Assembly (NCBI GenBank): GCA_035084275.1
Contig: CM068743.1
Coordinates: forward strand, 130,386,001 to 130,450,000
Direction: 5' to 3'
DNA length: 64,000 nt
DNA from: Hydrolagus colliei
Taxonomy: Eukaryota
Shown here: positions 19,769-63,490 of the stretch, piece by piece
Layout of the letters: every line of letters starts with the position of its first letter
Numbering within the stretch: the stretch's first letter is position 1
The notes under the pieces: generated by a model
The model's database searches: none
Seen by the model: only the letters and a program-made list of their open reading frames with translations
Told to the model about the DNA's origin: nothing
Made by a program: the position numbers and the translations under genes

Positions 19769-20560
19769 CCGTATATCTCTGCGTATAAGGCGCACTTTTT
19801 TTTCACGTCGGAAGATCTCGAAAGTTGGGGGTGCGCCCTATACGCAGGTACAAGAAATTTTGAGCCTCGGAGATACAGTAAACAGGAGGGGCGGCCGGCG
19901 CGCTGTCAGCCGGGGTTTGGTCAGTGTCCGGTGGGGGGTTGGGGGGAGCGGGTGACGGGGCTTCGGCCTCGGCCGCCCGGGCAGCGGCAGCAGCAGCGGA
20001 CTTCAGTGCTGTGCCTGCTGCCTGCCTTCTGCCAAACCCAGTCTGCCTCCCTCACTCCCTGCCGCTGCCTCCCTCCCTGCCTGCCTGCCTCTCCCTCCCT
20101 CCCTCCCTGCCTGCCTGCCTGCCTCTCTCCCTCTCTCTCTCCCTCCCTGCTGGCCTGCCTCTCTCCCTCTCTCTCTCCCTGGCTGCCTCCCTCCCTCCCT
20201 CCCTCTCTCTCTCCCTCTCTCCCTGGCTGCCGGCCTGCCTCTCTCCCTCTNNNNNNNNNNNNNNNNNNNNNNNNNNNNNNNNNNNNNNNNNNNNNNNNNN
20301 NNNNNNNNNNNNNNNNNNNNNNNNNNNNNNNNNNNNNNNNNNNNNNNNNNNNNNNNNNNNNNNNNNNNNNNNNNNNNNNNNNNNNNNNNNNNNNNNNNNN
20401 GCCTGCCTCTCTCTCTCCCTACCTACCTGTCTCTCCTGTCTCTCCTCCCTTCTGCCGGCAATATAATTGAAAATGCTTCCGGTTTTTTTTCACCAAGAAA
20501 AGGTCAAAAGTGGGGGGTGCGCCTTATACGTGGGTGCGCCTTATACGCGGAGATATACGG
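19769..20560. mobile_element. Non-autonomous Tc2/pogo-like element (CCGTA termini), copy 1, with internal CT-rich microsatellite and a 150-N gap
   Basis: TA|CCGTATATCTCTGCGTATAAGGCGCAC ... GTGCGCCTTATACGCGGAGATATACGG|TA. Confidence 0.9.
20251..20400. other. Assembly gap (150 N)
   Basis: A run of n inside the CT-rich microsatellite. Confidence 1.
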
Positions 20561-26664: not shown

Positions 26665-27247
26665 CCGTATATCTCTGCGTATAAGGCGCACTTTTTTTCA
26701 GGTCGGAAGATCTCGAAAGTTGGGGGTGCGCCCTATACGCAGGTACAAGAGATTTTGAGCCTCGGAAATACAGTAAACAGGAGGGGCGGCCGGCGCGCTG
26801 TCAGCCGGGGTTTGGTCAGTGTCCGGTGCGGGGTTGGGGGGAGCGGGTGACGGGGCTTCGGCCTCGGCCGCCCGGGCAGCGGCAGCATCAGCGGACTTCA
26901 GTGCTGTGCTTACCTTCTGCCGAACCCAGTCTGCCTGCCTCACTCCCTGCCGCTCTCCCTCCCTCCCTCCCTCCCTCCCTGCCGGCCTGCCTCTCTCCCT
27001 CTCTCTCTCCCACGCTGCCGGCCTGCCTCCCTCCCTCTCTCTCTCCCTGCCTCTCTCTCTCCCTCCCTGGCTGCCTGGCTGCCTGGCTGCCTGCCTCTCT
27101 CTCTCCCTACCTACCTGTCTCTCCTGTCTCTCCTCCCTTCTACCGGCAATATCATTGAAAATGCTTCTGTTTTTTTTCACCAAGAAAAGGTCAAAAACGG
27201 GGGGTGCGCCTTATACGCGGGTGCGCCTTATATGCGGAGATATACGG
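26665..27247. mobile_element. Non-autonomous Tc2/pogo-like element, copy 2 (583 bp), same orientation as copy 1
   Basis: Same TIRs and TA flanks. Nearly identical to 19769-20560 outside the microsatellite. Confidence 0.9.
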
Positions 27248-57848: not shown

Positions 57849-57972
57849 TAATCACAGTGATGAGGATGACCTGCCACCTGCTTTGGCTGCCGCAACTCGT
57901 AGCAGCCCGCCCCCTGCCAGTAAACCACCATCTTTTGAAGTTCCTCAGTTGCACGCCCCAGTCTACTGCAAG
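57849..57972 (+). CDS. EPB41L4B: EPB41L4B exon F (phase 2 to 0): (F)NHSDEDDLPPALAAATRSSPPPASKPPSFEVPQLHAPVYCK, with an alternative acceptor at 57858
   Basis: Two CAG acceptors 9 nt apart. DEDDLPP.LA matches human. The AAG|gtacag donor is less certain. Confidence 0.85.
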
Positions 57973-58583: not shown

Positions 58584-58661
58584 AATAGTTTTGATCAAGA
58601 TCATCCAGACATGGCTGCACCGGGAGATTTGCTGATGGACTTCACAGAGGCCACTCCTCTG
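58584..58661 (+). CDS. EPB41L4B: EPB41L4B exon G (phase 0 to 0): NSFDQDHPDMAAPGDLLMDFTEATPL
   Basis: ttttacag acceptor and CTG|gtctgt donor. PGDLLMDFTEATPL is identical to the recalled human sequence. Confidence 0.92.
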
Positions 58662-59527: not shown

Positions 59528-59575
59528 ATAAAGACTGTACCAGCCAATGCTTTTTCTTCTGCATCACAATTTCCC
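59528..59575 (+). CDS. EPB41L4B: EPB41L4B exon H (48 nt, phase 0 to 0): IKTVPANAFSSASQFP
   Basis: Long pyrimidine tract with taacag acceptor and gtaagt donor. Resembles a shortened human IKTFPVDTMNPFPDTFTTGPQFT. Confidence 0.8.
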
Positions 59576-61673: not shown

Positions 61674-62224
61674 GTGGAATTAACAGACAGCCTGTTGCAG
61701 TGTTATGACCTCCCACCATCTCCAGGAAAACTCTCATCAGTAATACCTTTGCATGTAGTTAGACCTCTTACTGATCCATCAAAATCTTCATCAGCAACAT
61801 GTGCTGGGCCTCTGATTGATCCAGGAAAATCATCCTTAATGCCTTTGCATGCAGTCAGGCCTCTAAACGACCCAGGAATTTCTTCATCCATAATGCCTTT
61901 GCATGCAGTCAGGCCTCTGACTGACCCAGGAAAATCATCAGCAAGGCCTTTGCATGCTATGAGGCATCTAACCGATCCAGGAAAATCATCAGTAATGCCT
62001 TTGCATGCAGTCAGGTATCCAAGCGATCCAGGAAAGTCATCAGTGATGCCTTTGCATGTAGTAAGGCCTCTGACTGATCCAAGGAAAACATCAATTACAC
62101 CTTTGCATGCAGTGAGGCCTCTCACTGATCCAGGAGTGTCTTCATCAGTAACGCCTTTGCATGCAATCAGGTATCCAAGTGATCCAATTCCACCAGTTCA
62201 GCACACCACATCTCCAACAGACAG
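61674..62224 (+). CDS. EPB41L4B: EPB41L4B exon I (551 nt, phase 0 to 2) containing a coding tandem repeat; probably the penultimate exon
   Basis: tttccag acceptor and AG|gtaagg donor, with an open frame throughout. The start VELTDSLLQC resembles human ADFRDSKLQC, and VIPLHVVRPLTD resembles LIPAATLRPLTE. Confidence 0.85.
61746..62186 (+). repeat. Coding minisatellite, 51-54 bp unit, about 9 copies (consensus PLHAVRPLTDPGKSSVM)
   Basis: CCTTTGCAT recurs at 61746, 61842, 61896, 61947, 61998, 62049, 62100 and 62154 (spacings 96, 54, 51, 51, 51, 51, 54). Confidence 0.95.
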
Positions 62225-62466: not shown

Positions 62467-63490
62467 ACAATAACAACAACAACAACGACTTCAATTTATA
62501 TAGTACCCTCCATGCCGGATGGCGTCTCAAAGCGCTTCACAACAACGGATCCTGGGACCAAGACGGGCAGGGGTAGAAAGGTGACCAAAGGCTCAGTCGA
62601 AGAGAAAGGTCTTTAGCTGGGACCTGAAACTGGGAAGAGAGGAGGCGAGGCGAAGGGAGTGAGGAAGGGAGTTCCAGAGCCTTTGGGCTTAGTGGCTGAA
62701 GGCACGGCTGCCGAGGGTGGAGCGGAGGATTTGGGGGACACGGAGGAGGCCAGACTCAGTAGAGCGAAGGCAACCGGAGCTGGTTAGAGAAGAGGTAGGG
62801 GGGTGCAGAGGAGTGGAGGGATTTGAAAACAAGGGTGAGGATCTTGAAATAGATCCTCTCTGAGATAGGGAGCCAGTGAAGTCTGGCAGGGACTGGGGTA
62901 ATGGGGAGTGAAGTTTGGTGCAGGTGAGAATGTGGGCGGCAGAGTTTTGGATGAGCTGGATTTTGTGGATTGTGGTGGAGGGGAGACCGGCAAGGAGGGT
63001 GTTTACGTACTCCAGCCGAGAGGTGACAAAGGCCTGGACCAGAATTTCAGCTGCTTTTGTGGTGGAGACGGGTGATCCGTCGGAGGTGGTAGAAGGTGGT
63101 GCTGGTGAAGGACCGGATGTGGGGGAGGAAGGACAGTTGGGGGTCGAACCTGACGCCTGGGTTGCGCACAGGTTCGGAGAGTTTCAGGGGCCAGGCCGGG
63201 AAGGTGGAGGAGGTGAGAGCCGTGTGAATGGAGATGTTGACGAGAGCCAAAGAGTATGGCTTCCGTCTTGTCGACATTCAGCTGTAGGAAGTTCGTGCTC
63301 ATCCAGCCCCTGATGTCTGACAGGCGGCTGACAGAACATCAGGGGACTGGGGGTCACAAAGTGAGGTGGAGAAATAGAGTTGGGTGTCATCTGCATACAT
63401 GTGGAAGTGTGCCCCATGTCTGTGGATGACATCCCCAAGAGGGAGCGTGTAGATGAGGAAGAGGAGGGGGCCAAGGATGGATCCTTGGAC
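62467..63490 (-). mobile_element. Young L2 LINE 3' ~1 kb fragment including the RT catalytic motif
   Basis: The reverse strand encodes [22 protein letters not shown] and LQLNVDKTEAI, and has a (TTG)n tail. Confidence 0.93.

Follow-up and report, generated by a model that had tools for sequence, protein, structure and literature searches.

An ancient, clade-wide array of a linear motif in the EPB41L4B tail of cartilaginous fishes, with 14-3-3 as a candidate ligand

The closest described counterpart of the locus reported here is the long isoform of bony-vertebrate EPB41L4B (Lulu2, Ehm2), which is alike in gene, exon chain and a C-terminal segment ending in LMTEL. In bony vertebrates the FERM-FA region binds p114RhoGEF, which the FERM domain activates under aPKC control; the accessible part of this work used the short form, without the tail that bears the array described below (PMC3198159). 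Two EPB41L4B isoforms have been described, one of them tied to E-cadherin stability, according to the accessible part of a second study (PMC10122424). Bony-vertebrate EPB41L4B differs from that of chondrichthyans in having at most one copy of a short unit that the latter repeats seven to nine times, and its tetrapod copy does not read R-x-x-[ST]-x-P. The unit is also comparable to mode I 14-3-3 sites of the pS/pT-D-P type in the accessible part of a curated collection (ARHGAP32 S1796, RIMS1/2, NHE1 S703, GLI1-3, SH3BP2 S278, SNAI1 S11, GRAP2 T262 and the related RON S1394; PMC4495292), which have the same Arg at -3, acidic +1 residue, Pro at +2 and disordered context; ARHGAP32 S1796 also has an upstream His and a downstream DPGK. 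Known 14-3-3 targets, however, carry one or two, usually dissimilar sites, whereas the array holds four to eight that are near-identical and in register, their binding being putative. The multivalent arrays of linear motifs that occur in disordered regions, the LC8-binding arrays among them, are presumably similar in their tandem short motifs, short linkers and graded motif quality, but the LC8 motif is different, and the Lulu2 array lacks LC8 anchor residues, is restricted to one clade and originated within a single exon. We do not regard the system as new in kind, given that linear motifs in disordered tails are already known to be amplified in tandem. Subscription journals aside, our literature search found no paper on the shark EPB41L4B array, which is visible in public RefSeq models.

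The window, that is the whole stretch of 64,000 nucleotides of Hydrolagus colliei DNA that we analysed, contains tail exons of EPB41L4B (Table 1). The peptide of the array exon shares 97% identity with EPB41L4B of Callorhinchus milii, its other named matches being shark and ray EPB41L4B, and the remaining exons show 86-95% identity to C. milii. The best-matching EPB41L4B proteins carry FERM N/M/C and FA domains, a membership read here from the tail exons, the FERM exons lying upstream of the window. We also find the conserved exon chain expected of an orthologue, with a final exon in compatible phase that ends in LMTEL about 5 kb past the window end. All of this agrees with the gene assignment made in an earlier, sequence-only reading of this DNA. 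The array exon has the borders AG|GTG and AG|GT, with a pyrimidine-rich acceptor on its 5' side and a GTAAGG donor on its 3' side. It belongs to the long isoform and lies immediately before the conserved C-terminal segment ending in LMTEL; the short isoforms (~500 aa) have another end.

Table 1. Positions of features in the window (numbered from its first nucleotide)
Feature	Position	Strand	Remarks
Composite CT-rich microsatellite, first copy	20012-20547		intronic; followed by 9-bp and 17-bp doublets
Stretch of N	20251-20400		inside the first CT-rich copy
Composite CT-rich microsatellite, second copy	26934-27237		intronic; followed by the same doublets
Upstream exon	57849..57972	+	124 nt; shares a run-X1 contig with the repeat exon
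Upstream exon	58584..58661	+	78 nt
Preceding exon	59528..59575	+	48 nt
Array exon (penultimate coding exon, EPB41L4B long isoform)	61674..62224	+	551 nt; phase 0 in, phase 2 out
Open frame	61703-62197	antisense	164 aa; taken as a shadow of the repeat
Unit 1	61728..61778	+	RPLTDP; degenerate in most elasmobranchs
Eight TGCATG hexamers	61750..62163	+	one per complete unit; from Leu(TTG)-His(CAT)-G
Unit 2	61779..61823	+	GPLIDP; degenerate, without His and Arg; 9 nt shorter than in the related chimaera
Unit 3	61824..61874	+	RPLNDP; without phospho-acceptor
Unit 4	61875..61928	+	RPLTDP
Unit 5	61929..61979	+	RHLTDP
Unit 6	61980..62030	+	RYPSDP
Unit 7	62031..62081	+	RPLTDP
Unit 8	62082..62132	+	RPLTDP
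Unit 9	62133..62186	+	RYPSDP, then IP; terminal; closest to the single sturgeon/paddlefish unit
LINE-like remnant	62500-63450	-	GC-rich; just 3' of the array exon
Frame in the LINE-like remnant	62689-63183		164 aa; presumably resembles the C-terminal part of a reverse transcriptase

Transcript-like contigs from a related chimaera provide good evidence that the array exon is spliced in that species. In three runs of one study (X1-X3; the RNA nature of runs X1-X4 is presumed), the limits of coverage are exactly 61674-62224, which is what the proposed check of transcript coverage called for. One X1 contig joins the exon at 57849-57970 to the repeat exon with 128 nt between them, a length that matches the two small exons plus two bases (78+48+2), and in a genomic-type run of the same chimaera (X6) the sequence runs on through both exon flanks. 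Because the X1-X3 contigs end at the exon limits and one joins an upstream exon, we take the exon to be spliced in that species, evidence that bears on splicing and not on level or tissue; two single-cell runs (X10, X11) have less than 1-fold depth on the exon, list no differences and are uninformative. Many public models of this gene are broken. For C. milii, the model now in use breaks off after unit 6 and ends in unrelated sequence and an older one reads on into the intron, and the EPB41L4B genes of Cetorhinus, Mustelus and Heterodontus are each split over separate models.

Within the frame of the exon we count nine units anchored on Asp-Pro, each of 15-18 aa, at successive spacings of 15, 17, 18, 17, 17, 17, 17 and 18 codons. 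R-x-x-[TS]-D-P occurs in seven of the nine, the exceptions being units 2 and 3, so that both the roughly nine in-frame units and the seven intact motifs of the earlier reading are recovered on re-reading the exon. Tandem Repeats Finder (TRF) detects repeat periods of 51 bp (score 366) and, at a higher order, 156 bp, and the last 13 codons of the units are 72-92% identical in DNA. Unit 2 lacks 9 nt that are present in the related chimaera, and with them its His; apart from this, its Arg and acceptor are already missing in both chimaeras. The remaining two plus frames contain 17 and 8 stops. The array frame is open, as the earlier reading had stressed, but the absence of stops is weak evidence for coding because 58% of the sequences were likewise free of stops when we simulated neutral evolution 20,000 times to the divergence observed. 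None of these simulations kept all 32 His/Arg/Asp/Pro cells, a result that is overstated because the null is star-shaped. A genome search found no second array in H. colliei, making it single copy; another tandem repeat (C2:3467023-3467421), 17 codons in period and to all appearance unrelated, matches the array weakly (E 0.025). Elsewhere in the window, the two CT-rich microsatellites are probably copies of one dispersed repeat.

The unit count proposed earlier, across chondrichthyans and bony vertebrates, gave a sharp division. All 21 chondrichthyan species with the array exon (two chimaeras, including that of the window, and 19 elasmobranchs) have 7-9 units, counting one protein per species and leaving out duplicate isoforms and tail-less models, the only types retrieved for Heterodontus and Carcharodon. 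The array is absent from all 114 bony-vertebrate proteins, a few of them partial and without the tail. The expansion is thus lineage-specific in the sense that bony vertebrates lack it, but it is common to all 21 chondrichthyans instead of being peculiar to this chimaera. Among bony vertebrates, the full H-x-x-R-x-x-T-[DN]-P is kept, once, only in paddlefish and sturgeon, where it is followed by LP and resembles the terminal shark unit; bowfin keeps H..R...DP without the acceptor. Mammals have RPLTE without the +2 Pro, the acceptor is mostly Ala or Val in birds and reptiles and Met, Val or Lys in amphibians, and the unit is absent from the teleost records retrieved. The single human copy cited in the earlier reading does exist (record P0070) but, without the +2 Pro, is not a mode I site, and its Thr is restricted to mammals among the tetrapods retrieved; for both reasons the array was not amplified from an established human site. 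Downstream of the unit, tetrapods and sharks have in common a V-Q-[TH] stretch, which may resemble an LC8 anchor. Given 7-9 units in all 21 chondrichthyans, the array is older than the chimaera-elasmobranch split of roughly 400 million years ago. From this comparison, which covers jawed vertebrates only, we infer that amplification on the chondrichthyan stem is a simpler history than loss in bony vertebrates; among 60 profile-search matches, 10 of them looked up by name, we recognised none from lamprey, hagfish, coelacanth or lungfish. This array of a linear motif, in a known gene, is real, ancient and found across the clade.

Aligning the units reveals a best-conserved core of H-x-x-R-x-x-[ST]-[DNE]-P, which includes a His at -6 that was absent from the earlier motif description. 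Over 157 units, picked by a pattern on His, Arg and Asp that by spacing missed only window unit 2, Arg-3 is present in 156, His-6 in 154, Pro+2 in 149 and Ser-11 in 148; the acceptor is Ser or Thr in 131, Asn in 22 and Ile or Ala in 4; the +1 residue is Asp in 130, Asn in 18 and Glu in 9; and these are counts of related sequences, not of independent events. R..[ST].P occurs in 128 of the 157 units and, in 17 species, nowhere in the ~340 aa of disordered sequence that flank the array. The last three units have R-x-x-[ST]-x-P intact in 21/21 species, and the core of the last unit is identical in 19/19 elasmobranchs. Decay is polar, with unit 1 usually degenerate and the 5' units decaying. Units at the same position are 77% identical between sharks and batoids, compared with 55% between units within a protein, so unit types are position-specific; chimaera units have no one-to-one mapping onto them.

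Is the array simply a tolerated spacer, lengthened by slippage in a slow lineage and held by generic constraint on frame, composition and length? Its identity between sharks and batoids is 79.6%, the same as that of the rest of the disordered tail (FERM domain, 91.6%), and a spacer role therefore deserves weight. Unit number also varies between seven and nine, 5' units decay, stop-free frames are frequent under neutrality and bony vertebrates manage without the array. Against this, the window and the related chimaera differ in the exon by 9 substitutions and one 9-nt indel, and the substitutions comprise 2 nonsynonymous and 7 synonymous changes, a pN/pS of 0.10 (P=0.002). Between units of the array pN/pS is 0.47, and both ratios bear out the retention under selection that the earlier reading had proposed. 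On a tree derived from the tail outside the repeat, and leaving out the extra unit of 8-unit sharks, Arg, Ser/Thr, Asp and Pro of the core changed 12 times by parsimony, whereas these residues in the flank lead one to expect 21.6 changes (P=0.02); with His added, the figures are 13 and 24.6. The core thus changes about half as often as expected, although its +2 Pro changes no less often than ordinary prolines and its His shows no significant excess over flanking His (P=0.2). The excess of core conservation over the flank is modest. Together with the position-specific unit identity and the uniform terminal core, these results make a pure spacer quite unlikely.

We propose instead that the array may dock 14-3-3 dimers multivalently, under the control of phosphorylation. 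Of the ligands that the unit suggests, 14-3-3 is the most likely, and we put this reading forward tentatively, at slightly less than an even chance. We favour it because the unit has the features of a mode I site and its spacing suits a dimer. Arg-3, Ser or Thr at the acceptor (7/9 in the window) and Pro+2, never preceded by Pro at +1, predominate at the frequencies given above, with window unit 2, which lacks the Arg, outside the 156/157 count. The context is predicted to be disordered, and sites lie 15-19 residues apart. Paired sites on one 14-3-3 dimer need at least 15 residues between them, according to the accessible part of PMC2860806, so neighbouring units at 17-18 residues would fit one dimer. 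In the accessible supplement of 14-3-3-Pred, pS/pT-D-P is found 12 times among 322 curated sites and twice among 331 negatives, and the wider [ST]-[DEN]-P set (pS/pT-D-P plus sEP and sNP) takes in 29 positives and 5 negatives, with only Ser forms counted for EP and NP and paralogues counted separately (PMC4495292). The resemblance to the mode I consensus is thus better than the earlier reading had claimed, and the +1 swaps from Asp to Asn or Glu remain inside the attested set. Near look-alikes of the unit are ARHGAP32 S1796, RON S1394, GRAP2 T262 and SNAI1 S11; R-P-L precedes the acceptor in RON S1394 and PAK4 S181, and Pro stands at -1 in SNAI1 and CDC25B/C (PMC4495292, same supplement).

Under this model, a basophilic AGC/CAMK kinase would phosphorylate the Ser or Thr three residues past the Arg, and adjacent units would occupy both grooves of one 14-3-3 dimer. 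Since neighbouring units would pair in this way, the Lulu2 tail could be coated by as many as three or four dimers. Such loading might give graded or switch-like control of access to the C-terminal segment, which in turn may set how stable the long isoform is or where at junctions it lies. Several observations speak against 14-3-3. The acceptor place holds Asn in 22/157 units and Ile or Ala in four; His-6, which is not a listed determinant of 14-3-3 or kinase recognition, outranks the acceptor in conservation; position -5 is Ala, Val or Gly, whereas known sites commonly have Leu or Arg; and conservation over the whole array does not exceed that of the remaining disordered tail. With no +2 Pro in tetrapod copies, no acceptor in those of non-mammals and no unit in teleosts, the site is also dispensable elsewhere. 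We found no paper linking EPB41L4B to 14-3-3 by title or abstract, though ANIA lists may name the human protein, and the accessible part of the 14-3-3-Pred supplement contains no EPB41 names (PMC4495292).

The tolerated Asn acceptors leave room for a different partner, one that reads H-x-x-R-x-x-x-[DNE]-P independently of phosphorylation, perhaps with the upstream Ser-Ser, phosphorylation being at most modulatory. Arg (0 changes), His (1) and Asp (2, to Asn or Glu) are the slowest columns on the tree while the acceptor changed five times, and the His-Arg spacing is kept in sturgeon and paddlefish as well as in the acceptor-free bowfin copy. The acceptor is nevertheless invariant across the last three units, the His conservation is not significantly above that of flanking His, and searches yield no known family or candidate partner. 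Pfam has no family for the unit (the top match, Atg11_middle, is sub-threshold at 22.3 bits against a cut-off of 26), the PDB has no match to it with an E of 1 or less, and a profile run against 1.84 billion proteins returns pieces of EPB41L4B and unrelated low-complexity repeats but no convincing second family. We regard a phospho-independent partner as unlikely, if far from negligible. An 18-aa repeat with H-x-x-R-x-x-T-[NS]-[PS]-G in a protein clustered with one of Elysia, a sea slug (P0203, residues 22-110), is a chance or convergent likeness. AlphaFold2, run on the array with a 16-row alignment, gives a mean pLDDT of 43.5, a pTM of 0.11 and no secondary structure; the low pLDDT is consistent with disorder, short of proof.

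Other short motifs were considered and rejected. The SIAH degron, P-x3-V-x-P, occurs in only 12/157 units (five in the window) and is absent from the invariant terminal unit of elasmobranchs. The Gly of a tankyrase motif comes one position too late, an EB1 SxIP is present only in chimaera unit 1, and SPOP and DYRK motifs are ruled out. A LATS/NDR site of the YAP/TAZ type needs His-5 and Arg-3, in the accessible part of PMC2860806, and here the His is at -6 with Ala, Val or Gly at -5.

Constraint may also act on the RNA. Each complete unit encodes a TGCATG hexamer (Table 1), and UGCAUG is the RBFOX element. These eight hexamers therefore raise the idea that the exon is in part a tandem RBFOX platform for splicing or stability of the long isoform, with the His and the A/V/G position kept for their codons; a protein-level role would be compatible. 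Eight of the 20 plus-strand TGCATG of the 64-kb window sit in the array exon, TTG-CAT-G is unchanged in 8/8 complete units, and position -5 is Ala, Val or Gly, all GNN codons, in 157/157 units. Synonymous change between the two chimaeras is about half the intron rate, at 7/143 sites against 13.8 expected (P=0.035) from five mostly intronic pieces in which 136/1410 sites differ (about 9.6%). None of the nine differences between the chimaeras, the only two species in the DNA comparison, falls inside a hexamer. The hexamer count is not independent, however, because the copies descend from one ancestral unit; CCT at -8 and CCA at +2 are just as invariant, and CAT before G is accounted for by CpG avoidance. 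The RNA fold z-score of the exon, -2.05, is expected from the TGCATGCA palindromes. No exon-skipped form appears among the gene models or contigs examined, and our literature search on EPB41L4B with RBFOX found nothing relevant. Based on these data, we consider the RNA-level explanation very improbable.

The array sets cartilaginous fishes apart, as a clade, in a protein that regulates junctional actomyosin, and it points to a functional motif in the tail that the Lulu2 study left aside, as far as the accessible part goes (PMC3198159). The 14-3-3-Pred authors stated in 2015, in the accessible part of their paper, that no protein was known to be bound via several site pairs (PMC4495292), a point against our proposal. 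The fullest form of our proposal is a poly-14-3-3 switch of cartilaginous fishes, in which 4-8 near-identical, in-register phosphosites would load several dimers per chain and would have been kept for ~400 million years, possibly with an RBFOX code in the same codons; we rate it as possible but on balance doubtful. If 14-3-3 does not bind, the H-x-x-R-x-x-x-D-P unit is a ready bait for a partner search. If it does, the array would offer an unusually regular natural test of multi-dimer loading per chain and of how site number relates to response, and, were the multi-dimer switch true, it would be a molecular character of Chondrichthyes and a natural model for multi-dimer 14-3-3 loading.
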